A stretch of 48,924 bases of DNA, taken from assembly GCA_947259045.1 (NCBI GenBank), contig CAMYKZ010000019.1, forward strand, positions 1 to 48,924, read 5' to 3'. Origin of the DNA: an uncultured Afifella sp. (GTDB lineage Bacteria; Pseudomonadota; Alphaproteobacteria; Rhizobiales; Afifellaceae). Below, piece after piece: positions 1 through 30,822 of this stretch (position 1 is the stretch's first letter; every line of letters begins with the position of its first letter). A model generated the notes under the pieces. That model saw only the letters and a program-made list of their open reading frames with translations. It ran no database searches and had not been told where the DNA came from. The position numbers and the translations under genes are program-made.

Positions 1-209
1 TCAATCAGCACAAAACTGCCCCGCAAATCGCCGATAATCACCATTTGCTGAAACCGGTCTTCGATCGTGCTTTCGGTTTCAGCCGACGTGTTTTTCGAGC
101 CGGTAACGGCAATCCAGCCGATGATCGCCATGGATATCAGAGCGACGACGAAAATCGATGCAAGCTTCATCGACAAGGTCATTGTGAATTTTGGACGCGA
201 CGGTTCCAT
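1..209 (-). CDS. Membrane sensor protein N-terminus, partial (runs off the window edge). TM helix then a periplasmic-type region; could be an MCP, a histidine kinase or a GGDEF protein.
   Basis: ATG at 209..207 with an AGGGGA SD 10 nt upstream. Translation MEPSRPKFTMTLSMKLASIFVVALISMAIIGWIAVTGSKNTSAETESTIEDRFQQMVIIGDLRGSF has a hydrophobic TM segment followed by a polar region. Co-directional, 85 nt downstream of the binding-protein gene. Confidence 0.4.
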   Translation of the reverse strand, partial: MEPSRPKFTMTLSMKLASIFVVALISMAIIGWIAVTGSKNTSAETESTIEDRFQQMVIIGDLRGSFVLI

Positions 210-294
210 TTTGTCCCCTGAATTTGACTAGGGCTGAAAGGGATGTTCGAAACAGATGTTCAAACGCCCCTCTCCCAGTTCGGATATCGATTGA

Positions 295-1059
295 CTATGA
301 CGGTGCACGCTGGCTCATGGCTTGAATCAGCGCACGGACATCATTGTTCGCATCACCCTTCGTCACCAGAATCAGCGGCTGCTCAGCGAAAACGCCGGGC
401 AAGGCAAAGACGGAAGCATTGAGCCTTGGTTCGTTGACGAAGCCGATGCCGTGTTTGGCCTGGCCGATCACTTTGACCACCTGTTGCAGCCCGGCCAACT
501 CCTGGGCGGTGCCGACGATAGCCTTGCCGTTCAGCAACTGCTTTTCAACCAGCGACCTCAAGCCCTTGCCCGCTTTAGTCGTGAATATCGCGATCCGCAT
601 GTCCGGCCCGCCGAGTTCGCGCCAGTTTGTGATCCTGCCAAGCAGAATATCGCGCAGTTGATCTTCGCGCAGGGAGCGAACCGGATTTTCCGGATGAACG
701 ATAAAGCGTGTTTTGACGCCACCGATCCGATGTTCTTTCAACTGGGTTTTGCCGATGGCGCCAGGAACCTTGCGCTCTACCGATGCCTTGACATCTTCAA
801 ACGGCGCCGAAATCATCGCCACATCGGCCTTGCCCGTGATCAGGGCAATAATGCCTTTGGACGATCCGTTGGCGATGACATGGATATTGCGGCCGGTCGC
901 CTTGTTCAGCGCGTCCATGTGCGGAATCAGAACGGTTCTCGCAACCGTGGTGGAGCCGTGTACTTCCATCACGCGGCCCTGTTGAGCGGATGCATGACCA
1001 AAAGCCAGCCCGAACGCCGTCAGCGCCAGCAGCCCCTTCAGTGATAATTTATTCAGCAT
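295..1059 (-). CDS. Periplasmic PstS-like (PBP_like_2) substrate-binding protein with signal peptide
   Basis: 254 aa. Signal peptide MLNKLSLKGLLALTAFGLAFGHASA. Motifs HGSTTVAR...ANGSSKGIIALITGKADVAMIS are typical of phosphate-binding-protein-like periplasmic domains. SD CAGGAGT upstream of the ATG. Confidence 0.7.
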   Translation of the reverse strand: MLNKLSLKGLLALTAFGLAFGHASAQQGRVMEVHGSTTVARTVLIPHMDALNKATGRNIHVIANGSSKGIIALITGKADVAMISAPFEDVKASVERKVPGAIGKTQLKEHRIGGVKTRFIVHPENPVRSLREDQLRDILLGRITNWRELGGPDMRIAIFTTKAGKGLRSLVEKQLLNGKAIVGTAQELAGLQQVVKVIGQAKHGIGFVNEPRLNASVFALPGVFAEQPLILVTKGDANNDVRALIQAMSQRAPS

Positions 1060-1708
1060 TATGTCTACTCCTGTTACCCTTGATTTCGGCCGCGCGGATC
1101 GCCGTCCGGGATCAAGCCGGGTTAGCCGTGATGCCTGTTGTTCAATCGCAGCTAGAAGCTGTTAGTAAATAATAAACGACGATTGAAGCGTCACGACACT
1201 GCAATGAATAGATCAAAAAAATGTCGCATATGTTATGAAACGCGGTTAATTAATTCTGTTCTTTGGCTTTGCAACGCAACGTTCCAGCGGTAGAAGTATA
1301 ATCGTCTCGCTTGCTTCATGCTAAGTTCTTAACCATATCGTCGATGTATTGTGAGTCCCGTTTGTCGCACGGAATCAAACATATAGAATTAATATCGGAA
1401 AATACGGATCATGCCATACAACCGCTGGAGGTGCCGGATTTTTTGTCAGAAATTTGCCTTCGAACTGTCGTCAAATATCGGCCGTATAAAGACTGCGGCA
1501 TGGACAGTTGTTTGAGAATTACAGTCAGGCGGGTTTGCGAATTCCTGGCGAGAGCCGCTAAAACCGGCAGAAATCACTGGCATGGTTTTCTCTTTGCGGT
1601 GACGCGGATGGGCCTGGTCGGCGGCGCCGTTCTGCTGGTCCCGCTGTTTCACGCTCTGGTGCCGCAACCGGACAAACCGGCCGGTCTGGCCGTTACCGAT
1701 GCCTCATC

Positions 1709-4700
1709 CTACACGCGTACGGGTTCCGACGCGCCGTCCTGGAGTTGCAGATCGAGCAGTTCAATCTCTCCGGACGGGTGCAACCTGAGCCGGCTTTGAT
1801 CCGCGATTGCATGCACACCCCTCGCGCCGACGATCATCGCAATGTCATGTTCGCGTGCGACAATCGCCATATGGCTCAGCCAGCCACCGACTTCGCTCAC
1901 CACACCGCCTGAACGCAGAACGAACGGCAGCCATGCCGGATGCACCATGGAGCAGACGATAATATCGCCATCGCGGAAACCTTCGATCGGTTTGCCCGCC
2001 TCGGCCGCTTCCATGGACACCACACAGCAACGGCCGGAAACAGCGCTGGAACCTGAGACCCTGGTGCCTTGCAGATCCGATATTGCGTCAGCGCCCTGCG
2101 CGGCGGACACCAGAGACGCCGATTCCAATTGCTTCAAAGTGAGACTGGTGGGCAACGCAGGCATCGCAAGAAGCTTTTGCTGTTCTTCCTGGCGCCGGCT
2201 TGCGACAGGCCTGAGTGCTGCGGCGCCACGGGCTTGAAGTTCCGCAAGTTCCTCAAATGTCAGATAGAAGCACAGGCCGGAGAGATTGAGTCTGCGGTCA
2301 AGTTCCATCAGCGCATGACGCAGAACGGCGAGATGGCGCAGCGATTCGTGTTTGGCGTCCTCCTTGAGCACCTGATAGCGCCGGGCAATGCCAACGGATG
2401 TTTTGACATCTTCGGGCAATTCGGGACCGCTGTCTGCCGCTTCCGCCGCATGGGAGAATTCCAGGCCGCACAAAGCGTCAAGATGCTCAGGCGTTTCTGA
2501 GTACCGCGGCTCGGAAAGTTCATAGTCGAAGCCGGCGCGATGGCCGAACTTGGCGACCAGATGCAGTTTTTTCTCCGCGGCGGGCAGGGCCAGCGCTTCA
2601 GAAAGAGCCCGCGCGGAAACCGCATCGGCTGCACTGCCAAGCAGGGCTGCCGGATCCAGACCTGTATTCTCGATAGCCAGCTTGGCGCGTGCAGTGTGGA
2701 AATCCGCCGCAATGTTGACGGTTTCGACTTCGACATGAGTGGACGTTACAAATTCCTCACGCAGACGTTCGACGCAGGCAAACAGTTCCGGCGTGGCCAT
2801 CTTTTCGAAATTGGCGATCTCCAGAACATTCATTTCCGCGTTGAACAGCGGCAGGAATTCTTCGCGGAACCGCCGTTCGATGCTTTCCACGCCTTTGGTC
2901 AGGCGCACGGATGCCGCTTTTGTCAAAGTCACCGCATTCTGTTTCATCCGCCGGGGATCGGTGTAAAGCCGGCCGAAGACGGTTTGCAGATGCGATGGAG
3001 CATCTTCCTCGACCGGATAGGTCAAGCCCAGACTGCGGCAGGACAGATCGACACTGCCGCCGGGCGCCCAGAGCGAACTCATCAGCGACAATGACAGTGG
3101 TGTGGGGCGTGGCAGAACCTCCGACATCTCGGTCTGTTCCAGCACGATTTCGTCCGCGCCGGCGTCAGCGGCAAGAGCAAACACTTTGTTCCATTCGTCC
3201 AGCGCCAGCTGATCCTGTGCCGCCGTGCCGAGAAGTGCGGTTATGTCACGGCTCTGCACGATCATGAATGCGCCATCGCGGTAGGTCCATTCAATGTCCT
3301 GCGGCCCGCCGAATATCTCTTCTGCCTGCGCGCCTGTTGCCAGCAATGATGCAATGTCAAAGGGCGCACCGGTTTCATCGAGGCTTTCATGCGAATGCCG
3401 TCCGAAGCGGAACGTATCGGGGGCCGCCATACCGGATACGAGATCATCGGCAGTACCGCGCACCATTTCCACCATCATGGCGCCGGCGGATTCCGGATCG
3501 CGGGTAAAGAGCACGCCGGCGAACTCCGGTGAAATCATGCGCTGGACGAGGATGTTGCCGCCGCTTGCGTCGAGGCCGTAACTGCCGGCGCGACCGGACA
3601 CGAAGGAGGCCATGACTTCGTCAATCGCGCGCTCAAGACTTTCATATTCGACATCGAGAACGCTCTCGAAGACCCCGGCGAAACTTTGCGTCGCACCGTC
3701 TTCCGCCGCCGCGGAACTGCGCACAGCGACACGGTCCGCTCCAAGCATCTGCCATGCCCGGTCCAGCATCTGCTGGCGCGCACTGCCGTCAGCAGCCTGC
3801 AGCCGTTGCAGGAACGATGTGGTCAGCACCACGCCATCGGGCACGGCAATGCCGTGCTGGCGCAGGCGCGCGAGCCGATAGGCCTTGTTGCCGCAACCGG
3901 CGAGCTGTTCTGCATCGGTCAAGGGGATAATGCCTGTCCGGGCCTGCAGATTGCGCCGTGCTTCGCGTAGAGCGTCCGGCAATCGCGCAAGCCGGGAAAA
4001 CTGACCGGTCACTGCGGCGCGCTGCACCAGAAGCAGGACAGCGCTGACGATCAGATAGAGGCTGGCGGCGGCGCTCAGTATGGCAGCCAGACCGGTCAGG
4101 ACCGGCAAAGCGATAAGCCATGCCAGCACCCGCTGCCGCTTTGTTCTGACGAGCACCAGATCCAGATAGACCGATCCCAGCAAAGCGAAAATCGCCGGCA
4201 GGACATAAAGCGGATCGGGCGCAGCGATATCGTCAATCCACAACAGGGAAACATTGTTGCCGTTTGCGGCGATCTGAACCGCCGACAGCATGATCATCAT
4301 CACCGGCAGGAATGCGAGTGCCAGGAGGTTGCGCAGCGGCGTCAGGCCGTGACGCGTGTAGAACGCCTTGATCGCACGGGTCAGACGCTGTGGATCATGT
4401 TTCAGCCTGTCTTTCAATTCGGCCAGCTCAGGCGCTGCCGCATTGGCGCGGATCTGATCGCGTTCCGCTTTGATCGCGACAGGCAGGACCGCAAGCCTGG
4501 ACGCCACGGCAGCCAGCAGAATGGTCAGCAGCAGGCCGATCCTGCCAGCCGCGCTGTCGAGCAGCCCGCCGACGACGTCGATTGATTTCTGCCACAGGCC
4601 GGCCTGCGATGCCGCCATCCAGGCCTCGATATGAGGTTTGGGTTTCTTCGGTATGAAATATTCCCATGGCAGGGTATAGCGGCCCCGGAAATCATGACCT

Positions 4701-5788
4701 GCACGGGTCAGTTCAAGTCCCAGCACTTCGGCATTGAAGCAACTCCGACGATCATAGCAGGCCGCGACGATGGGCTTGCGCGGCAGTCTGGAGATCCGGT
4801 CGGTCAGTTCCGCCGTCGGCGTCGGGCGCACAGGAAGATTGATTGCGCCCGGCAGGTGGCCGGAAGCAAAGTCGGCCGGGTAGCGCACATCGACGATCGC
4901 GGCTTGCTCGTTTTCGATCAGACCGCGGACATCCGGTGTGTCGAGCAGAACATTCTGAGCCGGATAGGACGGAAGGGCACGCAAGTCGCTCAGGGACCGG
5001 ACAGTCCTGTCCGTGAAAGACCGTCCCTCCACGATCCATTTTTCGATACCGCCGACAATGAAGCGGCAGTCGATACCCAGGCGGGCGAGCTTTTCGCAGG
5101 TTTCGGAACTGCGGTTGCCGTTGTGACACAGCAGAATGGCCGTCTTTCCGGCAAGATCAATATTCGACTTGGCCAGATCGGGGAAACGAATATGGCGTGC
5201 GCCGGGCAAGGTGCCCATCTCGTTTTCCGAGGTCTCCCGGATGTCGAGAAGAACCACGTCACTGCGTTCTCCCGTTTGCACCTGTTCTAGAAGCGCTGTC
5301 GTGTCGGCCGTCGAAATCCCCAGGCCGTGATCGCTCTGCGCTGCGAATGAGGTCACCTTGAGGTTCGGATCCAGAATGCGGGTTCCGGCGGTCACGGCAG
5401 GCCTGGTCAGTGTCGCCTGAAGCCGTGTTTGGCCTTGCTGACGCTGGTCGACAAACTGATAAATGTTCAGCCCGGCTGAAAGGAGAACCACCACAAACAG
5501 CCCGGCAGCGATACGCAAGGCCATTTTTGCGGAGCGGTCATCCCTGCCGGCTTTTGCACTGGCGCGCATACCAGCTGCTGCAGCACCGCCCCCCAGCATC
5601 GCCACGCCAAGGGCCATCAGCTGCGACACGCTTGAGATCGAACCGATCACAAGTTCCGGTGACGGAATTGCATAGGCCGGGCCAGCAAACAGAATGCCTG
5701 CCCCTGCGGCGGCGCTGGTACTGACAGTCTGAATTGAGAAACGGTTGCTGGATACTGGAGAGGAAATTGAAATCTTCAGGCGATACAT
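1709..5788 (-). CDS. Large multidomain membrane protein: N-terminal TM helices, two rhodanese domains, YidC/Oxa1-like insertase core, PPDK_N-type ATP-grasp (PEP/pyruvate-binding-like) domain, C-terminal PEP-utilizers phospho-His swivel domain
   Basis: 1359-aa uninterrupted ORF with high GC3. Rhodanese CX5R loop (LLCHNGNRSS) and a second (AACYDRRSC). YidC-like motifs (SRLAVLPVA; KAFYTRHGLTPLRNLLALAFLPVMM; LLWIDDIAAPDPLYVLPAIF). PPDK_N motifs (GCGNKAYRLARLRQHGIAVPDGVVLT; VAVRSSAAAEDGATQSFAGVFES; IEWTYRDGAFMIVQSRDIT). Swivel His motif GGWLSHMAIVAREHDIAMIVG. No PEP/pyruvate TIM barrel. Confidence 0.8.
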   Translation of the reverse strand: MYRLKISISSPVSSNRFSIQTVSTSAAAGAGILFAGPAYAIPSPELVIGSISSVSQLMALGVAMLGGGAAAAGMRASAKAGRDDRSAKMALRIAAGLFVVVLLSAGLNIYQFVDQRQQGQTRLQATLTRPAVTAGTRILDPNLKVTSFAAQSDHGLGISTADTTALLEQVQTGERSDVVLLDIRETSENEMGTLPGARHIRFPDLAKSNIDLAGKTAILLCHNGNRSSETCEKLARLGIDCRFIVGGIEKWIVEGRSFTDRTVRSLSDLRALPSYPAQNVLLDTPDVRGLIENEQAAIVDVRYPADFASGHLPGAINLPVRPTPTAELTDRISRLPRKPIVAACYDRRSCFNAEVLGLELTRAGHDFRGRYTLPWEYFIPKKPKPHIEAWMAASQAGLWQKSIDVVGGLLDSAAGRIGLLLTILLAAVASRLAVLPVAIKAERDQIRANAAAPELAELKDRLKHDPQRLTRAIKAFYTRHGLTPLRNLLALAFLPVMMIMLSAVQIAANGNNVSLLWIDDIAAPDPLYVLPAIFALLGSVYLDLVLVRTKRQRVLAWLIALPVLTGLAAILSAAASLYLIVSAVLLLVQRAAVTGQFSRLARLPDALREARRNLQARTGIIPLTDAEQLAGCGNKAYRLARLRQHGIAVPDGVVLTTSFLQRLQAADGSARQQMLDRAWQMLGADRVAVRSSAAAEDGATQSFAGVFESVLDVEYESLERAIDEVMASFVSGRAGSYGLDASGGNILVQRMISPEFAGVLFTRDPESAGAMMVEMVRGTADDLVSGMAAPDTFRFGRHSHESLDETGAPFDIASLLATGAQAEEIFGGPQDIEWTYRDGAFMIVQSRDITALLGTAAQDQLALDEWNKVFALAADAGADEIVLEQTEMSEVLPRPTPLSLSLMSSLWAPGGSVDLSCRSLGLTYPVEEDAPSHLQTVFGRLYTDPRRMKQNAVTLTKAASVRLTKGVESIERRFREEFLPLFNAEMNVLEIANFEKMATPELFACVERLREEFVTSTHVEVETVNIAADFHTARAKLAIENTGLDPAALLGSAADAVSARALSEALALPAAEKKLHLVAKFGHRAGFDYELSEPRYSETPEHLDALCGLEFSHAAEAADSGPELPEDVKTSVGIARRYQVLKEDAKHESLRHLAVLRHALMELDRRLNLSGLCFYLTFEELAELQARGAAALRPVASRRQEEQQKLLAMPALPTSLTLKQLESASLVSAAQGADAISDLQGTRVSGSSAVSGRCCVVSMEAAEAGKPIEGFRDGDIIVCSMVHPAWLPFVLRSGGVVSEVGGWLSHMAIVAREHDIAMIVGARGVHAIADQSRLRLHPSGEIELLDLQLQDGASEPVRV

Positions 5789-6282
5789 ATACGTCTAACC
5801 TTACGCGTTGTTTCAAAACGTTGCCCCCCTGGAAGCAAGCGCTCAGTTTTTGAGTTCCATATCTGGACATTAATCTGTAGCGTTGATTAGATTTTGAATC
5901 AAACTGTAAGTGTATTTTAATTTGTCACTCTACCCCTGCCTGAATATCAACGGGGCTCACAGGTTTGATTTTCTCCGCAGAATTCAGCGCGCGAAATGCC
6001 GGCACCGGAGCGCAAAATGGAAACGAGCGCAAGATACCGGCGCCGTTGGCGGATCAACCCGCTGAAGGATTGTCGGTTCTGATCATCGCATTGCCGGAAA
6101 AACATCCGGATCCGACCCCGATTTGATCACAATCATCCGTAATGCTGACAGCGACGTGGAGATCACAGCCATCTCCTGTGCGGTCCTGCTTTGTTCTTTT
6201 TCCGGAATTGTGACGGAACCAAGTGCGAACATGGGATAAAGCATTGGAATTTATGAAAAAAACTGTGACTATACTTTGACAA

Positions 6283-6301
6283 TTCACAGGAAGTTCCTGT
6301 G
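6283..6301 (-). terminator. Perfect inverted repeat TCACAGGAA-g-TTCCTGTGA, 15 nt downstream of the pheT stop. Possible terminator stem or protein-binding palindrome.
   Basis: 9-bp arms with a 1-nt spacer, read directly from the sequence. An A/T-rich tract (a T7 run) follows on the minus strand about 20 nt later, so it is not a canonical intrinsic terminator. Confidence 0.3.
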
Positions 6302-6315
6302 ATCAGCACAACCGG

Positions 6316-8739
6316 TCAACTGCGCAATTGTGCACCGGCCGCCTTGGAAACCGCGGCGACGATTTTCTGCGAAACCGCATCAATCTCCTCATCCGTCAGG
6401 GTCTTGTCGCGCGGCTGCAGCGCAATCTCGATGGCGATCGATTTCTGGCCGTCGCCAATGGAACCGCCGGCAAACACGTCGAACACATTAACATCGGTAA
6501 TCAGCGCCTTGTCCGCACCGCGGGCGGCGCGGACGATGTCGCCTGCGGCGACATCAGCCCCGACGATAAAGGCAAGATCCCGGGTCACAGGCTGCAGGTC
6601 AGACGCGTTGAGCGCCGGTCTTGCCGTCCTGGCCGATTTGGGCTGCGGCAGGGCATCCAGGTTGAACTCGAATGCGACGATCGGCCCTGCCACATCCAAT
6701 GCCTTCAGGATCCGCGGATGCACTTCGCCGAACGCGGCAAGCCGGTTCTTGGGCCCCAACTGCATAGAACCGACACGGCCGGGATGGTACCAGGCCGGGC
6801 CGGCGGCGACGGTTTGCAGCGACGCCACGGGCGCGCCGACCGCCTCCAGCACGGCCAGAAGGTCCGCCTTGGCGTCGAACAGATCGACCGGTCTGGACTT
6901 GCTTGCCCAGTGACGGGCGGCATTGGCGCCGGCGCGGATTGCGGACACATGCACCTGCTCGTCGGCGGCTTCCGGGCCGAGATAGATCTGACCCGCCTCG
7001 AACAGGGCGCAACTGTCGAAACCGCGCGCCTGGGCGCGGCCGGCAGCGCTGATCAGGTTAACCAGCAGGGACGGTCGCATATGCGAGAGTTCGGTTGAAA
7101 TCGGATTGTCGAGCGCAACCTCGTCACCGCCGCCGCCAAACAGTTCCGCCTGGTCCTGCGGCAGGAACGACCAGGTGACCGCTTCATTCAGACCGCGGGC
7201 GGCAAGAGCCCGGGCGGCGCGGAAACGCCGCCGCTGCGCGACCGATATCGCCTTGGCCGTGACCAGATCCCTGCGCGGCAGATGCATATGTCCGATCCGG
7301 TCGAGACCGTAAATGCGGATGATTTCTTCGACAAAATCGGCCTCGCCGTGCACGTCCGGCCGCCACTCAGGAGCCAGAACCTCAGCAACGCCGGAACCCT
7401 CGTCGAGGGTGATCTGAAATCCAAGTTCGGTCAGGATGCGAACCTGCTCCTCCACCAGGATGTCAACGCCGGCAAGCGTGCGGACCCGGTCCATGCGCAG
7501 CCGATAGGACGCATTGCGCAGCGGGGCTTCGCCGGCGACAACCAGATGGGACGGCTCGCCGCCGCACAGGCTGAGAATGAGTTCGGTGCCCAGTTCAGCC
7601 CCCGGCTCGACGAATGCCGGGTCGACGCCGCGCTCGAAGCGGTAACGGGCGTCGGTGATGACATTGAGCTTGCGTCCGGTGGTGGCGGTGCGCACCGGAT
7701 CGAACCAGGCCGCTTCAAGAAACACGTTCACGGTCTCATCCGTGCAGCCTGAAGCCAAGCCGCCGATCACGCCGCCGATGGCTTCCGGGCCGGCATCGTC
7801 GGCGATGACTGTCATGGTCTCGTCAAGCGTGTAGGTCTTGCCGTCCAGCGCTTCCAGGCTTTCACCCGCCTCTGCCAGGCGGGCGTGAATGTGTCCGTTC
7901 ACCTTGTCGGCATCGAAGACATGGAGCGGCCGGCCGTAGGTCAGCGTCATGTAATTGGTGATATCGACCAGAGCGGAAATCGGCCGCAGGCCGACGGCAC
8001 GCAGCAACTTCTGCATCCATTCCGGCGACGGTCCGTTTTTCACACCGCGAATATAGCGGCCGACAAAAAGCGGGCAGGGCGTGTTTGCCGGATCATCGAA
8101 CCGGAGCGATACTTCGATCGGGCTGTCAAAGGTCCCGGCGACTGGTTCCGTAGCCAACGGTTTCAGCCGGCCCATCCGCTTTGCCGCCAGATCCCGGGCA
8201 ATACCGTAGACACCAAGAGCATCCGGACGGTTCGGCGTCACGCCGACATCGATGACCGGATCATCCATGCCGGCATAATCGGTGTATTTCATGCCGACCG
8301 GCGCATCCTCAGGCAGATCGATAATACCGTCATGATCTTCCGACAGCATCAGCTCGCGCTCAGAACACAACATTCCGTTTGATTCTTCGCCGCGGATCAC
8401 GCCGGGTTTCAGATCAACCCCGGTGCCCGGGATATGCGCCCCTGCCGGCGCGAACACGCCCTTCATGCCCGTGCGGGCATTGGGTGCGCCGCAGACGACC
8501 TGGATCGGCTTGCCACCGTTGATATCCGGACCGGCATCGACGGTGCAGACCCTGAGCCGGTCGGCATTGGGGTGCTGCCGGGCTTCGATGACATGGGCGA
8601 TCGTGAACGGCGCAAGCGCGTCGGCAGCGCTCGTCAGATCCTCAAGTTCCAGACCGATCATCGTGCAGGCATCGGCAATTTCGCGCGCCGACGCGTCGGT
8701 CTCAAGAAACTGTTTCAGCCAGGACAGGGTGAATTTCAT
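6316..8739 (-). CDS. pheT: Phenylalanine--tRNA ligase beta subunit
   Basis: 807 aa. N-terminus MKFTLSWLKQFLETDASAREIADACTMIGLELE is the canonical PheT start. B3/4 and anticodon-binding regions present. Directly downstream of pheS. Confidence 0.95.
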   Translation of the reverse strand: MKFTLSWLKQFLETDASAREIADACTMIGLELEDLTSAADALAPFTIAHVIEARQHPNADRLRVCTVDAGPDINGGKPIQVVCGAPNARTGMKGVFAPAGAHIPGTGVDLKPGVIRGEESNGMLCSERELMLSEDHDGIIDLPEDAPVGMKYTDYAGMDDPVIDVGVTPNRPDALGVYGIARDLAAKRMGRLKPLATEPVAGTFDSPIEVSLRFDDPANTPCPLFVGRYIRGVKNGPSPEWMQKLLRAVGLRPISALVDITNYMTLTYGRPLHVFDADKVNGHIHARLAEAGESLEALDGKTYTLDETMTVIADDAGPEAIGGVIGGLASGCTDETVNVFLEAAWFDPVRTATTGRKLNVITDARYRFERGVDPAFVEPGAELGTELILSLCGGEPSHLVVAGEAPLRNASYRLRMDRVRTLAGVDILVEEQVRILTELGFQITLDEGSGVAEVLAPEWRPDVHGEADFVEEIIRIYGLDRIGHMHLPRRDLVTAKAISVAQRRRFRAARALAARGLNEAVTWSFLPQDQAELFGGGGDEVALDNPISTELSHMRPSLLVNLISAAGRAQARGFDSCALFEAGQIYLGPEAADEQVHVSAIRAGANAARHWASKSRPVDLFDAKADLLAVLEAVGAPVASLQTVAAGPAWYHPGRVGSMQLGPKNRLAAFGEVHPRILKALDVAGPIVAFEFNLDALPQPKSARTARPALNASDLQPVTRDLAFIVGADVAAGDIVRAARGADKALITDVNVFDVFAGGSIGDGQKSIAIEIALQPRDKTLTDEEIDAVSQKIVAAVSKAAGAQLRS

Positions 8740-8805
8740 TCTATTGGCTTTCCGCTTGTCGGTATGGTCCGTTAACCGGCTGATCCTGCCGCCGGGCTTG
8801 CCTCA

Positions 8806-9879
8806 TCAACTCAGGCCCTCAGCCAGCGTCGGCATCGAAACAGCCGAAAATCCGTAGTGGCGCAGCCATCTGAGGTCGGCCTCGAAAAAGGCGCGAAGAT
8901 CCGGAATGCCGTATTTCAGCATCGCGATGCGGTCGATGCCCATGCCGAAGGCATAACCCTGATATCGCTCGGGATCATATCCGCCGGCGGCGATGACATT
9001 GGGATGGACCATGCCGGAACCGAGAATTTCCAGCCAGTCGTCGCCCTGGCCGATTTTCAGTTCGCCGTTCTCCCACGAACAGCCGATATCGACCTCCATC
9101 GACGGCTCGGTGAACGGAAAATGCGACGGCCGGAAACGCATCTTGATGTCGTCGACTTCGAAAAACGCCTTGCAGAACGCTTCCAGCGTTCCCTTGAGAT
9201 GGCCCATATGGGTGGTTTCGTCGATCACCAGCGCCTCAACCTGATGGAACATCGGCGTGTGGGTCATGTCGGAGTCCGCCCGGAAAGTCCGGCCGGGCGC
9301 GATGATGCGGATCGGAGGTTCCTGCCCTTCCATCGTGCGGATCTGAACCGGAGAGGTATGGGTGCGCAGCACCATGCGCGAGCCGTCGGGCTTTTCCTTC
9401 AGGTAGAACGTGTCATGGTCCTGGCGGGCGGGATGTTCGGGCGGGATGTTCAGCGCGCCGAAATTGTACCAGTCGGTTTCGATATGCGGGCCCTCGGCAA
9501 CGGAAAATCCCATATCGGCGAATATCGCAATCACCTCCTCCATCACCTGGGTGACCGGGTGAATGGTGCCGGCCTGCTCCGGCCTGGCCGGCAAGGTGAC
9601 GTCGACGGTTTCAGACCTGAGCCGCTCTTCCAGCGCCGCTTCGGCGAGCGTATCGCGCCGCGCCTCGATCGCCTCGGCGATGCGGACCTTCAGATTGTTG
9701 AGGGCGGGGCCCGCCGTCTGGCGCTCTTCGGGGCTCATCTTGCCAAGCTTTTTCAATTGCCCTGACACAGACCCCTTCTTGCCAAGCGCCAATACGCGGA
9801 CAGCTTCAAGCGCGGTTTCGCTGCCGGCAGCGGCAATCGAGTCGATCAGATCTTGTTCTAACGTTTCCAGTTCTGACAT
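8806..9879 (-). CDS. pheS: Phenylalanine--tRNA ligase alpha subunit
   Basis: Class II aaRS motifs ([12 protein letters not shown]; [21 protein letters not shown]). Start placed at internal ATG 9879 (MSELETLEQ...) rather than the ORF-track start at 9969. Confidence 0.9.
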
Positions 9880-9983
9880 GATGATGCGTCCTGGCAGGAA
9901 TTTTTGAAATCGGCGCTTTTTAGCAGACCTTTGCGCAAGCGCCAGTCCTACAGACCCAATCGGTCTCATAAAACAAGATCGGC

Positions 9984-10016
9984 CGCAAAAGCAAAAGGGC
10001 GGCAGTGCCGCCCTTC
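9984..10016 (-). terminator. Rho-independent terminator downstream of rplT
   Basis: Minus strand reads GGGCGGCactGCCGCCC (7-bp GC stem) followed by TTTTGCTTTTG, about 30 nt after the rplT stop. Confidence 0.6.
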
Positions 10017-10044
10017 AGATTTTCAGTTCAGGCTCGTTCGAAGT

Positions 10045-10446
10045 CTAGCTGACGGCGCCTTCGAACTCACCGGGGGTAAAGTCCTTCAAATAGGCCAGGG
10101 CGGACTTGGCCTGTTCGGCAAGAGCGGTAAAGGCTTCCGCCTCATGCACGGCCAGATCAGCCAGCACCTTGCGGTCGACTTCGATGCCGGCCTTGTTCAG
10201 GCCATCGATCATCCGGCCATAGGTGAGGCCGTTATCGCGGGCTGCCGCATTGATCCGCTGGATCCACAAAGCCCGGAAGTTGCGCTTGCGGACACGACGG
10301 TCGCGATAGGCGTACTGGCCTGCTTTTTCAACCGCCTGCTTTGCGGCGCGGATCGTGTTCTTGCGCCGGCCATAATACCCTTTGGCCTGTTTGGTGACGT
10401 TCTTGTGTCTGGCGTGAGCTGTCACGCCGCGTTTTACGCGTGCCAT
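10045..10446 (-). CDS. rplT: 50S ribosomal protein L20
   Basis: [39 protein letters not shown]... is canonical L20. The 133-aa length with a C-terminal extension is typical for alphaproteobacteria. Confidence 0.95.
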
Positions 10447-10466
10447 TGTTCAGATCTCCTGCTCGC

Positions 10467-10664
10467 TCAACTGTAAGGCATGAACTTGCGGACGATGCGG
10501 GCATCGGGCTCCGACAAGAGTGTTGTGCCACGGGCATTGCGGATGAATTTCTTCGACCGTTTGATCATCATGTGGCGCTTGCCGGCCTGGGCGACTTTTA
10601 TTTTCCCGGTCGCGGTAAACTTGAAGCGCTTCTTGGCGCCTGACTTGGTTTTCATCTTGGGCAT
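10467..10664 (-). CDS. rpmI: 50S ribosomal protein L35
   Basis: [46 protein letters not shown] is canonical L35 (66 aa). Start placed at the internal Met of the longer ORF. Sits 20 nt upstream of rplT. Confidence 0.9.
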
Positions 10665-10851
10665 TCTGCTCTCCTTCATTCGGCAATGGCTTTTGCAACC
10701 CTTTGCCGGACTGGGTCTGTTAAAACTGGCTCGATCAATGAGCATTGCGGATCGACACGGCATGCCCTTTCCGCTTTTGCGGAAGCCGGCCTATCCCAAG
10801 CGCGGCCTTATAGCCGCGACATTTGTCTATGGCAAGTCGATTCCGGCCGGT

Positions 10852-11514
10852 TCAGGCTTCTGCTTCGGCCCCGTCAGTCTGCGTTTCGGCGGCAACGTCC
10901 GCCGGAGCATCGGACTGCGCCGGTTCTGCGTCTGCCGCCTTTTCGGTTTTCTCAGGTTTCGCGGCCTGCTTTACCGACGGCAGCGGCGCCAGGATCATGA
11001 TCATCTGGCGGCCTTCGGACTTCGGCGAGAATTCCATTTTGGCAACATCCGCCAGTTCGTCACGAACTTTGTAAAGCACATCAAGGCCGAGATCCTGATG
11101 CGCCATTTCACGGCCTCGGAACCGCATGGTCACCTTGACCTTGTCTTCGTCTTCCAGAAAGCGGCGGGCATTGCGCATCTTCACGTCATAATCATGGGTG
11201 TCGATGTTCGGCCGCATCTTGATTTCCTTGACGTCGACCGTCTTCTGCTTCTTGCGCGCTTCGGCGGCCTTCTTCTGGGCCTGATATTTGAATTTGCCGT
11301 AATCGAGAATCTTCACGACAGGCGGTCGGGAATTGGGAGAAATCTCAACCAGATCCAGCCCGGCTTCATAAGCCATGGCAAGCGCCTGCTGCGTATCGAT
11401 GTCGCCGTGATTGTGTCCATCTTGGTCGATCAGCTGGACCTGTGGGATCCGGATGTCTTCGTTAACGCGGGTTCCGTCCTTGACCGGAGGCGGTGCGCGA
11501 TGAGGTCTGCGAAT
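10852..11514 (-). CDS. infC: Translation initiation factor IF-3, with a non-canonical AUU start and an Ala/acidic C-terminal tail
   Basis: IF3 N- and C-domain motifs ([24 protein letters not shown]; [16 protein letters not shown]; [13 protein letters not shown]; [11 protein letters not shown]). The N-terminus [14 protein letters not shown] matches alphaproteobacterial IF3 starts. The ATT codon at 11514..11512 is preceded by AAGGAG at an 8-nt spacing. Confidence 0.85.
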
Positions 11515-11686
11515 GGTTAAGTCTCCTTCTTGATATTGAAAAAAGATCCGAATCGTCTTCAAGCGGCTGAATTACGGATCGCTGCTGAAAATCCGGCCAT
11601 TTGGCGCGAGAGTCAACACAAAGTCGGTATCTTTCCGGTTAAGTGTCGCAGGATTGTTTGAACCAAAGGCCGATCAGTGAGCCTTT

Positions 11687-28278: not shown

Positions 28279-30822
28279 CTATTCCGCAGCCACCGACGCG
28301 GAATCGGGCATTGCCGGAAGCCGCACGGTCACGGTGGTTCCCTTGCCTTCCTCCGATTCGATCTGGATCGTGCCGCCGTGCAGTTCGACGAGGCTCTTGA
28401 CGATCGACAGGCCGAGACCGGCACCGCGCCGGCGGCCCTGAGCGCCGCGGCCTTCGAACGGTTTGAATATTTTCGGGATCATGGCTTCCGGAATGCCGGC
28501 GCCAAAATCGCGCACCGTATAGATCACCCAACCGGCATCGCGCTCCCCGGTCATCTCGATCGATCCGCCGGAATCGGAGAACCGGACCGCGTTGGCGATC
28601 AGATTGAACAGGATCTGCCGGACCCTTTGTTCGTCCGCCCTGAATGTTCCGATCTCGTCGGGAATGTTGAGGCGAAGCGTAATCGACTGGGCCTCGATCC
28701 GGTCGCGCAGACCTTCCGCCGATGCCTCCGCCACCCGGCGGATATTCACCTCGGCAATATTCAGCGCCATGATGCCGGCATCAACAGTGGCCAGGTCGAG
28801 AATATCGTTGACGATCGCCATCAGTGCAGTCGACGAGGATGCTATATGCTCCATGTATTCGGCCTGCTGCGGATTGAGCTTGCCGATCGTTTCATCCGCC
28901 ACCATTTCGGCAAAGCCGATGATGGAGGTCAATGGCGAACGCAGTTCGTAGGACACATGCTGGATGAAATCGGACTTCAGCCGATCGGCCGCTTCCAGCG
29001 CTTCGTTGCGCTCGCTGAGCATTTTCTGGACACGGGCTGAATCGGTGACATCGACGAAGATCAGCATCGTCATGCCCTGGGCCAGCGATACGGTGGAATA
29101 ATCGATGACGCTGCCGTCCGGCCGGTCCATCCGGCCTGAAAGCGGCCAGGTATTGTCCAGGTCGGTAATGGCGATGCGGATGCCTTCCCAGACATCCATC
29201 TTGGAATAGATGACGCCGCAATTCTCGATGACTTCGGTGATATGAGGTTCTTCGCGCAGCATATCGGGAGACATGCGCCAGATATCGGCAAAGACCGGAT
29301 TGAACAGCCGCAACTTGCCGTCCGATCCGAACACGGCCACGCCCTCAGCCAGATGGTCAAGGGTTTCGCCCTGTAACTGCGACAGGACGTTAACACGGCT
29401 TTCAAGCGACAATTGCTCGGTCACATTCTCGTAGATATAGGTCATCTGCCCGCCGTTCGACATGGCCACGACCCGGATCGAACGGCCGTCGGGAAGATGC
29501 CACCATTCCTCGCGGGTGCCGTCATTGCCGTAGGCTGTCAGATGATTTTCACGCCATTCGCGGTAGTTGGCCTGTTCCGGAAGTTTTCGTTCCGCCCGCA
29601 ATTGATCGAGGATGGTGCCTTCTTCCGGGCCGGTATCAAGAAATGCCGGCTGAAGATCCCAGAGCGAACGAAACGCTGAATTGTTGAAGCGCAGTTTGCG
29701 GTCGGCGCCGAAAACGGCAATTGCCGCTGTCAGCTGGTCCAGCGTCCGGGCCTGGGTTTCGGCCGCCTGAACCAGTTCTTCGCGTACCGAATCGATGCGG
29801 GATTCGTCGATGGCAACGCCAATCGAGCCGTCCGTCAGAGCCAGGTCCAGTATATGCAGATGCTGGCGTTCACCGGCCACTGTCGTCGGCACGGCTTCAT
29901 CGAAATTCCGTCGGGCTTTGTGGGCTTCACGGATATTGTCGCGGGTTTTCGGGCCCAGCAGTTCCGCACCGGCGGCAATGACCGCTTCCGTGTCCTGGGC
30001 TTCGATCGCGCTGGCGTAGGCATTATTGACCCAGACAATCCGACCGCCTTCGTTGCGGCGCCAGACCGGAAACGGCAGATGTTCGGCCAGGCCGCGCAAT
30101 GCCGTCATTTCGCTGACGACAACGGTAGCCTGCTCCTTGAGTTCGGCAAACGACTTTCGTTCGCCCGTCAGTTCCCGGAACCGGGCGATGGCGCGGCGGC
30201 CACTGGTCCGCCCGGTAACCTCAAGGATGTCGTTGGACAGAGTTGTCAGCGTAATCTGGAAACTTTCGCCGGACCCGCGCAGCTTCTGCAATGCGGCATC
30301 CAGGCTGGACATACTGTCCGGCTCAAGCCAGCTGCCGACGGCCAGAAAGTCTCCGGCGGTTTGCGGTGCTCCGACACGCTCCGGCAGAGAGCCCAGAACA
30401 CGAGGGGCGTCGGTGGGATGATCCCAGACGATCGTTCTTTGATCGTCTGATCCGAGCATCGCCTCGCTGCGGTCAAGCGCGGCGCGCAATTCGATGATTT
30501 TTGTTTCCAGCGAACCGATCGTATCGTCGTCGCGCATATTGATTGCGGCGCGCAATCCGAACCAGGCGGTGACGGCAAATCCGCCGGTGACGGCCAACCA
30601 GAGGATATCCTTGGTTTCGAAACTTGTTCCGAACAGGCTGGCGGTCGGCAGATCGAAGGCAAAGGCGGGTACCGGAAATGCAGCGCAGGCAACGGCAAGT
30701 GGGCTGGTTGCCATCAGCCTCCTGAAAACCGGATTCCGGCAGAGCCTGTTCCTCAATTTTTGCCACCGCCGCAGTTGGAGCTTCCGGGCGCTTGCCGATC
30801 CCGGACGAATCAGTTGGAACAT
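28279..30822 (-). CDS. Multi-PAS sensor histidine kinase (HisKA plus HATPase_c, no receiver domain)
   Basis: H-box HVSYELRSPLTSIIGFAEMV. N/G boxes (NLIANAVRF; RGAGLGLSIVKSLVELHGGTI). N-terminal TM segments and three or more PAS-like segments. Confidence 0.85.
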   Translation of the reverse strand: MFQLIRPGSASARKLQLRRWQKLRNRLCRNPVFRRLMATSPLAVACAAFPVPAFAFDLPTASLFGTSFETKDILWLAVTGGFAVTAWFGLRAAINMRDDDTIGSLETKIIELRAALDRSEAMLGSDDQRTIVWDHPTDAPRVLGSLPERVGAPQTAGDFLAVGSWLEPDSMSSLDAALQKLRGSGESFQITLTTLSNDILEVTGRTSGRRAIARFRELTGERKSFAELKEQATVVVSEMTALRGLAEHLPFPVWRRNEGGRIVWVNNAYASAIEAQDTEAVIAAGAELLGPKTRDNIREAHKARRNFDEAVPTTVAGERQHLHILDLALTDGSIGVAIDESRIDSVREELVQAAETQARTLDQLTAAIAVFGADRKLRFNNSAFRSLWDLQPAFLDTGPEEGTILDQLRAERKLPEQANYREWRENHLTAYGNDGTREEWWHLPDGRSIRVVAMSNGGQMTYIYENVTEQLSLESRVNVLSQLQGETLDHLAEGVAVFGSDGKLRLFNPVFADIWRMSPDMLREEPHITEVIENCGVIYSKMDVWEGIRIAITDLDNTWPLSGRMDRPDGSVIDYSTVSLAQGMTMLIFVDVTDSARVQKMLSERNEALEAADRLKSDFIQHVSYELRSPLTSIIGFAEMVADETIGKLNPQQAEYMEHIASSSTALMAIVNDILDLATVDAGIMALNIAEVNIRRVAEASAEGLRDRIEAQSITLRLNIPDEIGTFRADEQRVRQILFNLIANAVRFSDSGGSIEMTGERDAGWVIYTVRDFGAGIPEAMIPKIFKPFEGRGAQGRRRGAGLGLSIVKSLVELHGGTIQIESEEGKGTTVTVRLPAMPDSASVAAE

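Follow-up and report, generated by a model that had tools for sequence, protein, structure and literature searches.

YidC/Oxa1 proteins are universal membrane-protein insertases and, as recognized more recently, lipid scramblases; to our knowledge, they are not known as parts of enzymes. Here we describe a gene on contig CAMYKZ010000019.1 of an uncultured Afifella sp. (the whole 48,924-nucleotide stretch analysed is hereafter called the window), the product of which fuses a YidC/Oxa1-like core to two rhodanese domains and to a dikinase half related to rifampin phosphotransferase (RPH). The core resembles YidC/Oxa1/Alb3 proteins (3wo6; E. coli 3wvf/6al2) by its five transmembrane (TM) helices, its cytoplasmic hairpin, the arginine of its first helix and its W..D..P periplasmic loop. 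As in Gram-negative YidC, a periplasmic insert of ~300 residues separates the N-terminal anchor from the core; however, at the position of the beta-sandwich P1 domain the fusion protein carries the two rhodaneses, and a 740-residue enzyme takes the place of a ribosome-binding tail at its C-terminus. A rhodanese associated with a YidC core is also found in the E. coli YibN-YidC pair (PMC11997395): the association is covalent in the fusion, which has two, predicted periplasmic rhodaneses, whereas YibN is TM-anchored with a single cytosolic one.

The dikinase half has the domain order (ATP-grasp, helical substrate domain, swivel histidine) of RPH-Lm (5fbs/5fbt/5hv1) and of other dikinases lacking a TIM barrel (PigC/HapC/RedH, HpeHI, MarK, glucan water dikinase, VadK). 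Enzymes of the RPH class convert ATP, a substrate hydroxyl and water into AMP, Pi and substrate-phosphate, the beta-phosphate travelling via the swivel histidine (PMC4844700). RPH-type dikinases are described as phosphorylating hydrophobic small molecules, glucans or proteins. RPH is the best sequence and fold match of the fusion, in which the nucleotide-binding motifs and the phospho-carrier histidine are kept; in contrast to RPH-type dikinases, the fusion lies far below every equivalog cut-off, ~265 residues of its middle domain are unalignable to RPH by sequence, and its dikinase is predicted to be the cytoplasmic tail of an eight-TM protein, to which some relatives add a PilZ domain. The cellulose synthase BcsA is also a polytopic membrane enzyme with a C-terminal PilZ, a likeness to the PilZ-bearing sister clade that we take, by analogy, to be consistent with activation by cyclic di-GMP (c-di-GMP); unlike BcsA, the fusion shows no glycosyltransferase or channel homology, and the window protein is without PilZ. 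The genes associated with the fusion, coding for a periplasmic binding protein (PBP) and, directly downstream, a two-TM sensor, follow the logic of AioX/AioS, ArrX/ArrS, TtrS/ThsS and PstS-PhoR (PMC5408782). However, in contrast to AioX/ArrX/TtrS-type systems, the output of these partners is a hybrid kinase or a GGDEF-EAL protein and not a kinase with a DNA-binding regulator, and the associated "target" gene is the fusion and not a reductase or oxidase operon. A full-text literature search for the fusion or for its combined parts returned nothing on the fusion itself, in keeping with the statement of the initial annotation, which had been made from the sequence alone, that no described family combines these parts. 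Database names are automatic only ("PEP/pyruvate-binding domain-containing protein", "YidC/Oxa1 family membrane protein insertase", "rifampicin phosphotransferase"). The fusion is new as a system and built of known domains, and the main uncertainty is its function, not its existence.

The gene and its elements, with residue numbers referring to the protein, are the following (AF2, AlphaFold2; pLDDT, predicted local distance difference test score).
1709..5788, minus strand: fusion gene, 1359 amino acids, rhodanese-rhodanese-YidC core-RPH-type dikinase (open reading frame (ORF) with an ATG start, four Pfam families).
5687..5746, minus strand: signal-peptide-like or first TM helix, residues 15-34, ending in A-Y-A (AF2; hydrophobic stretch ending in AxA in relatives).
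5654..5671, minus strand: AIPSPE motif, residues 40-45, predicted periplasmic (family alignment).
5573..5638, minus strand: Gly/Ala-rich TM helix A, out to in, residues 51-72 (AF2 helix 51-79, hydropathy).
5459..5518, minus strand: TM helix B, in to out, residues 91-110 (AF2, hydropathy, charge).
5003..5341, minus strand: rhodanese 1, residues 150-262, predicted periplasmic (Pfam, pLDDT above 90).
Codons 5108-5128, minus strand: rhodanese 1 loop C221-H-N-G-N-R226 (read directly).
4634..4981, minus strand: rhodanese 2, residues 270-385, predicted periplasmic (second Pfam stretch, local profile).
Codons 4739-4759, minus strand: rhodanese 2 loop C344-Y-D-R-R-S-C350 (read directly).
4010..4537, minus strand: YidC/Oxa1 core, residues 418-593, five TM helices (Pfam, PDB YidC, Foldseek, charge topology).
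4496-4498, minus strand: codon of the groove arginine R431 of the YidC core (72/72 members).
Residues 435-479: cytoplasmic helical hairpin of the YidC core (AF2).
4196-4243, minus strand: periplasmic loop motif LWIDDIAAPDPLYVLP, residues 516-531 (read in translation).
3209..3916, minus strand: ATP-grasp domain, residues 625-860 (PPDK_N; aligned to the RPH ATP-grasp).
2009..3208, minus strand: helical middle domain, residues 861-1260, at the position of the rifampin-binding (substrate) domain of RPH (Foldseek).
1754..2008, minus strand: phospho-histidine swivel domain, residues 1261-1345 (PEP-utilizers; aligned to the RPH His domain).
1871-1873, minus strand: codon of H1306, in GGWLSH1306MAIVARE (72/72 members).

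The ORF is single and unbroken, with 1359 codons from an ATG start, and Rhodanese (in two stretches), 60KD_IMP, PPDK_N and PEP-utilizers each score above the Pfam gathering score in its product (Pfam assignments were judged against gathering scores, those of NCBIfam by equivalog or subfamily cut-offs). The six elements listed by the initial annotation thus stand in the order it gave, through four Pfam families, and the motifs it quoted lie where it had placed them, with the exception of the length of the first rhodanese loop. A search of 5.8 billion proteins yielded 610 matches at E <= 1e-10, the best 120 of which are all 1292-1412 amino acids long, 49-70% identical to the query over 95-100% of its length, and contain the same four Pfam families; members occur on complete chromosomes, such as that of Rhodoplanes sp. 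Z2-YC6860. So wide a recurrence of the architecture greatly exceeds what chance would give. The YidC-like core alone (residues 395-640) was used in an exhaustive HMMER search of 1.84 billion 50%-identity representatives. This search gave 198 matches at E <= 1e-10: in the top ~120, the core lies at ~370-640 of proteins of 1250-1620 amino acids, with identities down to ~29-32%, whereas ordinary YidC proteins (220-610 amino acids) surface only at E ~1e-14 with 26-30% identity. The fusion's core is a clade of its own, apart from ordinary YidC. Eight local hidden Markov models (HMMs) were built for the modules (signal/TM region, rhodanese 1, rhodanese 2, YidC, ATP-grasp, middle domain, helical linker and swivel), and all eight were found in identical order in every near-complete representative (~75 full-length 50%-identity representatives). 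No split gene pair was seen among these ~75 proteins, and nearly all shorter entries begin or end inside a module or at its edge, as contig-end fragments would. A single-protein search of genome contigs found 5 loci; a profile scan of metagenomes found far more, 377 related stretches, which were confirmed by tblastn. The titled loci belong to Rhodobacteraceae, Amylibacter, Hyphomicrobiaceae, a gammaproteobacterial Granulosicoccaceae metagenome-assembled genome (MAG) and a MAG binned as Brocadiaceae: the fusion, which might have been confined to one clade, is conserved and reaches beyond the Rhizobiales.

It had been asked beforehand whether the ORF might be an assembly artefact, with orthologues always split. 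The module order is constant in relatives and no split forms were found. That an error of assembly or annotation fused separate genes, or that the gene is a pseudogene in decay, is practically excluded, since the reading frame is uninterrupted, the full-length architecture recurs on many independent contigs including complete chromosomes (Rhodoplanes CP007440), and the catalytic residues are kept in relatives; an artefact or split gene is ruled out by at least 120 relatives with a fixed module order and by the 377 metagenome stretches. Two shorter proteins, P0175 (1024 amino acids) and P0204 (1059 amino acids), start with Met and carry a YidC-like core at ~70-310 and a swivel domain; Pfam finds neither rhodanese nor PPDK_N in them, and they may be rhodanese-less divergent variants or mis-called genes.

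Residue conservation was counted in an alignment of 72 sequences, 34-70% identical to the query. The groove arginine R431 of the YidC core and the phospho-acceptor H1306 are present in 72/72, as is R226 of the first rhodanese loop, in which C221 is found in 71/72; in the second loop, C344 is kept in 69/72, R348 in 71/72 and C350 in 55/72. The ATP-grasp lysine K635, in the G-N-K motif, is invariant. Selection on all these catalytic hallmarks is strong. At the level of whole modules, rhodanese 2 is the most conserved, with a mean identity to the query of 57%, compared with 49% for rhodanese 1, 41-47% for the YidC core, 48% for the ATP-grasp domain, 38% for the middle domain and 50% for the swivel. 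The region of an ordinary TM helix, helix B (76-125), has a mean identity of 24%. The YidC core is thus conserved about as well as the enzymes and about twice as well as helix B, which indicates that it is constrained like a domain bearing an active site and argues against a mere anchor.

PPDK_N matches the protein with 112.1 bits and PEP-utilizers matches residues 1271-1331 with 53 bits, in agreement with the ATP-grasp domain and the C-terminal swivel domain with its phospho-acceptor histidine, here H1306, that had been read from the sequence. The ATP-grasp motifs G633-N-K635, VRSS..ED..SFAG, QDIEW and VQSR are invariant or nearly so and align to RPH. The TIM barrel of PEP synthases, PEP-utilizers_C (PF02896), had been reported missing: it has no Pfam match, and the protein ends 53 amino acids past H1306. 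The best PDB sequence matches of the kinase half are Listeria RPH 5fbs/5hv1, which align by sequence to the ATP-grasp domain and to residues 1121-1347, but not to ~855-1120 (~265 residues). Two AF2 models were computed, for residues 1-640 and 640-1359. In the latter (pLDDT 86.6, predicted template modelling score (pTM) 0.84), the middle domain is modelled at pLDDT ~90; it contains the conserved motifs LPRPTPLSLSLM, GGSVD, GHR..DYEL and LKEDAKH. The top Foldseek match of this model is full-length Listeria RPH 5hv1 (E 2.6e-28, 886 columns, query-normalized template modelling score (TMq) 0.51), followed by the RPH ATP domain, HpeI, PEP synthase and pyruvate phosphate dikinase. As this structural alignment to full-length RPH spans ~855-1120, the region missed by sequence is predicted to be an RPH-like helical substrate domain, and the C-terminal half to be a complete three-domain dikinase of the RPH kind. 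This is the rifampin-phosphotransferase-type "ATP -> His -> substrate" layout that had been proposed in place of a PEP synthase, RPH being the best match in both sequence and fold.

However, relatedness to RPH does not extend to orthology. The nearest NCBIfam models for the C-terminal half are rifampin phosphotransferase, the "PEP synthase" PRK06241 and the prodiginine ligases PigC and RedH, and all cut-offs were missed: 154.5 vs 999 and 113 vs 1700 for the RPH equivalogs (NF041857, NF000283), 140 vs 1350 for RedH, 118 vs 1300 for PigC and 112-149 vs 598-976 for the PpsA models. A true RPH orthologue is ruled out by these scores, and no rifampin-resistance claim is made; the automatic name "rifampicin phosphotransferase" is likewise at odds with the RPH equivalog score (154 vs 999), which argues against an orthologue. 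A true PEP synthase or pyruvate phosphate dikinase is ruled out by the lack of the TIM barrel together with the equivalog scores.

In the middle of the protein, 60KD_IMP (PF02096) scores 57.7 bits vs 35, residues 421-593 covering profile positions 3-161 of 163, and YidC2 (3wo6/3wo7) is matched by sequence in the PDB at E 4e-8. R431 aligns with the arginine of Bacillus halodurans YidC2 in the "..RLA.LP.." motif. The model of residues 1-640 (57-sequence alignment, pLDDT 82.5, mostly >90 in the YidC core and mostly >=90 in the rhodaneses) places the core helices at 419-433, 435-479 (the hairpin), 486-510, 529-546, 550-569 and 573-593 with pLDDT ~90 or higher, and Foldseek aligns the predicted fold to B. 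halodurans 3wo6 (target-normalized template modelling score (TMt) 0.75) and to E. coli 6al2 (root-mean-square deviation 3.6 A). The claim of ~200 YidC/Oxa1-like residues with the TM1 arginine and the loop motif is therefore upheld, as R431, LWIDDIAAPDPLYVLP, Pfam, PDB and Foldseek agree. All NCBIfam YidC cut-offs were nevertheless missed: TIGR03592 (55.9 vs 84.3), PRK02944 (56.6 vs 377) and the PRK01318 models (38-44 vs 365-1094). As judged from these comparisons, the YidC core appears complete, but belongs to a divergent clade and is not an orthologue of housekeeping YidC. Taken together, the missed equivalog cut-offs and the lack of a TIM barrel indicate that the fusion is no orthologue of RPH, PEP synthase or housekeeping YidC.

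Pfam Rhodanese (PF00581) scores 80.5 bits vs a cut-off of 22.2 over two stretches, and both domains are modelled at pLDDT ~90 or higher; in Foldseek searches of the PDB they match rhodanese 3gk5 (TMt 0.83) and the tandem rhodaneses 6mxv and 1yt8. The second rhodanese-like domain, also claimed before, is found both by the second Pfam stretch and by the local HMM. For the first, the domain stands, but the "intact CX5R loop" attributed to it does not, as the loop reads CX4R. Cdc25/Acr2 phosphatases and arsenate reductases are recognized by a loop of seven residues (CX5R), whereas six-residue loops mark sulfurtransferases. Both loops, C221-HNGN-R226 and C344-YDRR-S349, have six residues and are thus of the sulfurtransferase type; the phosphatase/arsenate-reductase type is ruled out by the directly read loop. 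Both rhodaneses are predicted from their residues to be catalytically intact sulfurtransferases acting through a Cys-persulfide.

From the N-terminus, the protein comprises the AxA-ending helix, AIPSPE, helix A, a K/R-rich cytoplasmic loop (73-90), helix B and the two rhodaneses, followed by an amphipathic helix, the five-helix YidC core with its K/R-rich hairpin, a K/R-rich segment and the ATP-grasp domain. The two or more N-terminal TM helices noted before are supported by AF2 helices at 15-34, 51-79 and 84-128 and by hydropathy peaks at 46-64 and 89-107; the Lys and Arg content (K+R) of the N-tail favours an N-in orientation of helix 15-34, and helix A shows 54% mean identity across the family. 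Family-mean K+R is 4.0, 11.0 and 5.3 in the segments predicted to be cytoplasmic vs 0.0, 0.9 and 0.1 in those predicted to be periplasmic. These values agree with the YidC core's known N-out/C-in orientation. The charge distribution and this orientation together place the rhodaneses in the periplasm and the dikinase in the cytoplasm: in the predicted topology, the protein is an inner-membrane enzyme with about eight TM helices and parts in three compartments. Since the rhodaneses and the kinase would face opposite sides of the membrane, a reaction adding sulfur and phosphate to the same molecule would need a membrane crossing. The AIPSPE motif (I41 and P42 invariant; A40, S43 and P44 >=90% in the 72 sequences) is among the best-kept short motifs outside the catalytic sites, and sits after the signal-peptide-like AxA site.

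The window also contains, downstream of the fusion gene, the partner genes of the locus.
295..1059, minus strand: secreted PstS-like binding protein (PBP_like_2), 254 amino acids (Pfam, 82 bits).
3..209, minus strand: first 69 codons of a membrane sensor, which runs off the window (65% identity to the third gene of locus L029).
1060..1708: AT-richer spacer of 649 bp between the fusion gene and the PBP gene (GC 0.456 vs ~0.6 in the flanks).
The window PBP scores 84 bits with TIGR02136, below the cut-off, and its nearest solved structures are PstS proteins. Locus L029, of identical gene order, carries the closest relative for which sequence is available there, a fusion 78% identical to that of the window; the visible part of its third gene codes for 4HB_MCP_1 and HAMP domains and is collinear with the N-termini of the HAMP-PAS-GGDEF-EAL partners found at other loci. 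The spacer probably holds the promoter of the PBP-sensor unit, although a promoter and terminator scan of 1..6400 gave weak consensus matches only, not above shuffled expectation. No convincing small gene was found in the spacer; spacers of ~500-700 bp also occur in related loci.

We surveyed 95 loci, 33 of which were well flanked (>=4 kb on both sides). A PBP_like_2 gene, usually followed by a HAMP-PAS_7-GGDEF-EAL gene, is present at 44 loci, whereas at 30 the binding protein is PhnD/PtxB-like and orthologous between loci (46-56% identity among the first five such loci compared), with a hybrid His kinase usually coming immediately after it. Neither was seen at 21 loci, 20 of which have <4 kb on at least one side, the exception being L007. 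Among the well-flanked loci, a PBP and sensor pair adjoins the fusion in 32/33 (18 PhnD-like/hybrid His kinase, 14 PBP_like_2/HAMP-PAS-GGDEF-EAL), so that the neighbourhood check suggested by the initial annotation revealed a conserved binding protein and membrane sensor. Relative to the fusion gene, the pair is downstream co-directional, upstream co-directional, divergent or convergent; where both are visible, the binding-protein gene is usually directly upstream of that of its sensor. The genes upstream of the fusion vary between all the relatives examined, so that conservation is limited to the partner genes downstream. An all-against-all clustering of 633 flanking ORFs revealed no other recurrent family save antisense artefacts (13 loci), judged to be spurious ORFs inside GGDEF-EAL genes, and TctC-like genes (10 loci), which are scattered and common in these genomes. 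At L007 (3945-7498), the fusion gene is immediately preceded by two genes for phage-type integrases, a hint that this copy is mobile or recently inserted.

The pair in the window, PBP_like_2 with what appears from the L029 counterpart to be a 4HB-HAMP sensor, would be a third, non-orthologous version. In a rough neighbour-joining tree, the window fusion groups with PhnD-type relatives though its partner is PBP_like_2, and the window PBP is only 33-37% identical to other PBP_like_2 partners; the pair thus appears to have been exchanged more than once, with the association kept. The nearest solved relatives of the PhnD-like partner are the phosphite-binding PtxB, PhnD, and the sensors ArrX (arsenate) and AioX (arsenite). 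In TtrS/ThsS, tetrathionate and thiosulfate are likewise detected by domains of the PhnD-like kind (PMC5408782). This kinship and this precedent make the partners putative oxyanion-type sensors; both PBP types score far below the PhnD and PstS cut-offs. No homology was detectable between the periplasmic parts of the His-kinase and GGDEF-EAL partners.

Two independent observations connect the family to c-di-GMP. The GGDEF-EAL partners are one, and in some PhnD/His-kinase loci (L008, 15942-17342, minus strand; L083; L093) a GGDEF-EAL gene lies in, or adjoins, the same gene string, linking the His-kinase-type partners to c-di-GMP as well. The other is the fusion of PilZ (PF07238) directly after the swivel, as detected by Pfam in P0173 (1361-1443, 43.5 bits), P0211 (1400-1472) and P0185 (1343-1436), the last of which adds a GAF domain (1467-1601). 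A local PilZ HMM found the domain in 17 of the ~75 full-length representatives and in L004, and the representatives that bear it form a sister clade within the family; the RxxxR and [DN]xSxxG motifs are intact in most of nine PilZ tails inspected. The C-terminal extension of L003 (139 amino acids past the histidine) gave no PilZ match. From the two links to c-di-GMP, the fusion protein would seem to act as an effector under the control of the signalling pair.

We propose, tentatively, and as a reading somewhat likelier to fail than to hold in full, that the fusion is a signal-controlled enzyme spanning three compartments and acting as the effector arm of a PBP-sensor signalling module. ATP would be split to AMP and Pi, with the beta-phosphate parked on His1306; the His domain would then swivel to the helical domain and pass the phosphate to a hydroxyl (or enol) group of a substrate that is amphipathic, lipid-linked or otherwise associated with the membrane. 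The hydrophilic groove of the YidC core, lined by Arg, might let the new anionic head group into or across the bilayer, where the periplasmic rhodaneses could perform sulfane-sulfur (persulfide) chemistry, with either thiosulfate-like anions or the exposed product as their target. The partner PBP and sensor would monitor an anion of that class and set the activity through c-di-GMP or a phosphorelay. More specifically, the Oxa1/YidC fold may have been recruited as a bilayer conduit and not as an insertase, a dikinase-activated lipid-linked or amphipathic molecule passing through the groove to be finished by the rhodaneses under a c-di-GMP/oxyanion-sensor switch; we regard this version as speculative and rather doubtful. 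YidC has been reported to act as a lipid scramblase and to bind YibN, a TM-anchored rhodanese protein (PMC11997395); in this light, neither a conduit nor an association with rhodaneses is so unusual a proposal.

Several points weigh against the proposed signal-controlled enzyme. The membrane location of the substrate, its crossing and the action of the rhodaneses on the product are inferred. In solved YidC structures, the groove does not open towards the periplasm. PilZ is absent from the window protein, and the sensor gene nearby runs off the window before its output domain is reached. Separate transcription of the fusion gene and the partner genes is suggested by the 649-bp spacer, L007 has no partner genes despite 8-kb flanks, and, because of near-duplicates among the loci, the figure of 32/33 overstates their independence, strong as the pattern is.

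The evidence for a signalling link could also be read differently, with the fusion as a signalling protein or co-sensor: the rhodaneses would be redox or sulfur sensors, the YidC core a TM relay or a dock for sensor helices, and the dikinase output would phosphorylate a protein (e.g., the adjacent kinase or cyclase) or make a small signal. The near-universal adjacency to PBP and sensor pairs fits such a role, as do the PilZ and PilZ-GAF fusions, which are typical of signalling proteins. Moreover, a protein kinase derived from pyruvate phosphate dikinase, VadK, exists (PMC13400623), and YidC grooves bind TM helices of other proteins (PMC11997395). However, we consider this role unlikely, as the hybrid His kinase and GGDEF-EAL partners share no common acceptor domain and the retention of a complete helical substrate domain of the RPH kind makes a small molecule the likelier substrate. 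Pure sensor rhodaneses also often lose the catalytic cysteine, whereas here the catalytic Cys and the Arg-containing loop are kept in both domains.

The YidC core itself allows two further readings. It might be a dedicated insertase that inserts or assembles specific clients, the flanking enzymes modifying the client or gating the core; candidate clients would be the adjacent two-TM sensor or the small one-TM protein of sister loci described below. The core is complete, with the invariant groove arginine and the cytoplasmic hairpin, the small single-TM ORF is conserved right after the gene at >=25 related loci, and small single-span proteins are classic YidC clients (PMC11997395). This reading is nonetheless improbable: the core is 26-30% identical to ordinary YidC, in its own clade and below the NCBIfam YidC cut-offs, and the small ORF occurs only in PBP_like_2/GGDEF-EAL-type loci and not convincingly in the window. 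We are also unaware of any insertase that depends on ATP-grasp or rhodanese partners. Conversely, the YidC-like helices might serve as an anchor only, tethering a periplasmic thiosulfate sulfurtransferase and a cytoplasmic RPH-like kinase for a soluble or xenobiotic small molecule. Each enzymatic module is indeed complete by itself, and among solved structures the kinase half comes closest to an enzyme that inactivates an antibiotic; yet an anchor would hardly account for a fixed architecture with no split or anchor-swapped version in ~75 representatives, for an invariant groove arginine, or for a core conserved like the enzymes and about twice as well as helix B, and 154 bits against an RPH equivalog cut-off of 999 denote no RPH orthologue. 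There is little probability in a mere tether.

Returning to the proposed signal-controlled enzyme, its interest lies in a YidC fold held in place between two unlike catalytic modules, one on either side of the membrane, and in a family whose members, numbering in the hundreds, come from Proteobacteria of soil, sea and fresh water and preserve the catalytic residues. If the groove carries a small molecule or lipid, this would be a new function for the YidC fold, and chemistry in the periplasm would be coupled to cytoplasmic ATP in a novel manner; if the conduit version is true, it would constitute a previously unknown route by which an extracellular signal or a component of the envelope is phosphorylated or thiolated. 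The association with oxyanion-type binding proteins, His kinases, GGDEF-EAL and PilZ domains places the family in c-di-GMP and envelope signalling and provides experimental handles.

A small convergent ORF coding for a one-TM protein of ~60-80 amino acids is found right after the fusion stop codon at >=25 loci of the PBP_like_2/GGDEF-EAL type, for example at the following positions, all outside the window.
L006, 12054-12299, minus strand: small convergent ORF.
L009, 12045-12233, minus strand: small convergent ORF.
L010, 12076-12264, minus strand: small convergent ORF.
The 20 distinct sequences, nearly all ATG-initiated, begin with "MTFELVRxGWPN[TS]AAIVALALMPIVAL", and their variability by codon position (0.28/0.16/0.40) fits a coding sequence; the encoded protein is a possible partner or client for the YidC core. 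Its nearest counterpart in the window, ORF 1311..1799 (plus strand), is only vaguely similar, with no in-register start codon and no tblastn match.

No tRNA was found in the window. Directly upstream of the fusion gene lies the infC-rpmI-rplT-pheS-pheT housekeeping cluster (6316-11562, minus strand), as read from ORF translations. At 28279-30822 (minus strand), an ORF of 847 amino acids resembles in its central part, with 35-40% identity, the HisKA/HATPase region of the hybrid kinases found as partners at other loci; located 22 kb from the fusion gene, it is probably an unrelated sensor kinase.

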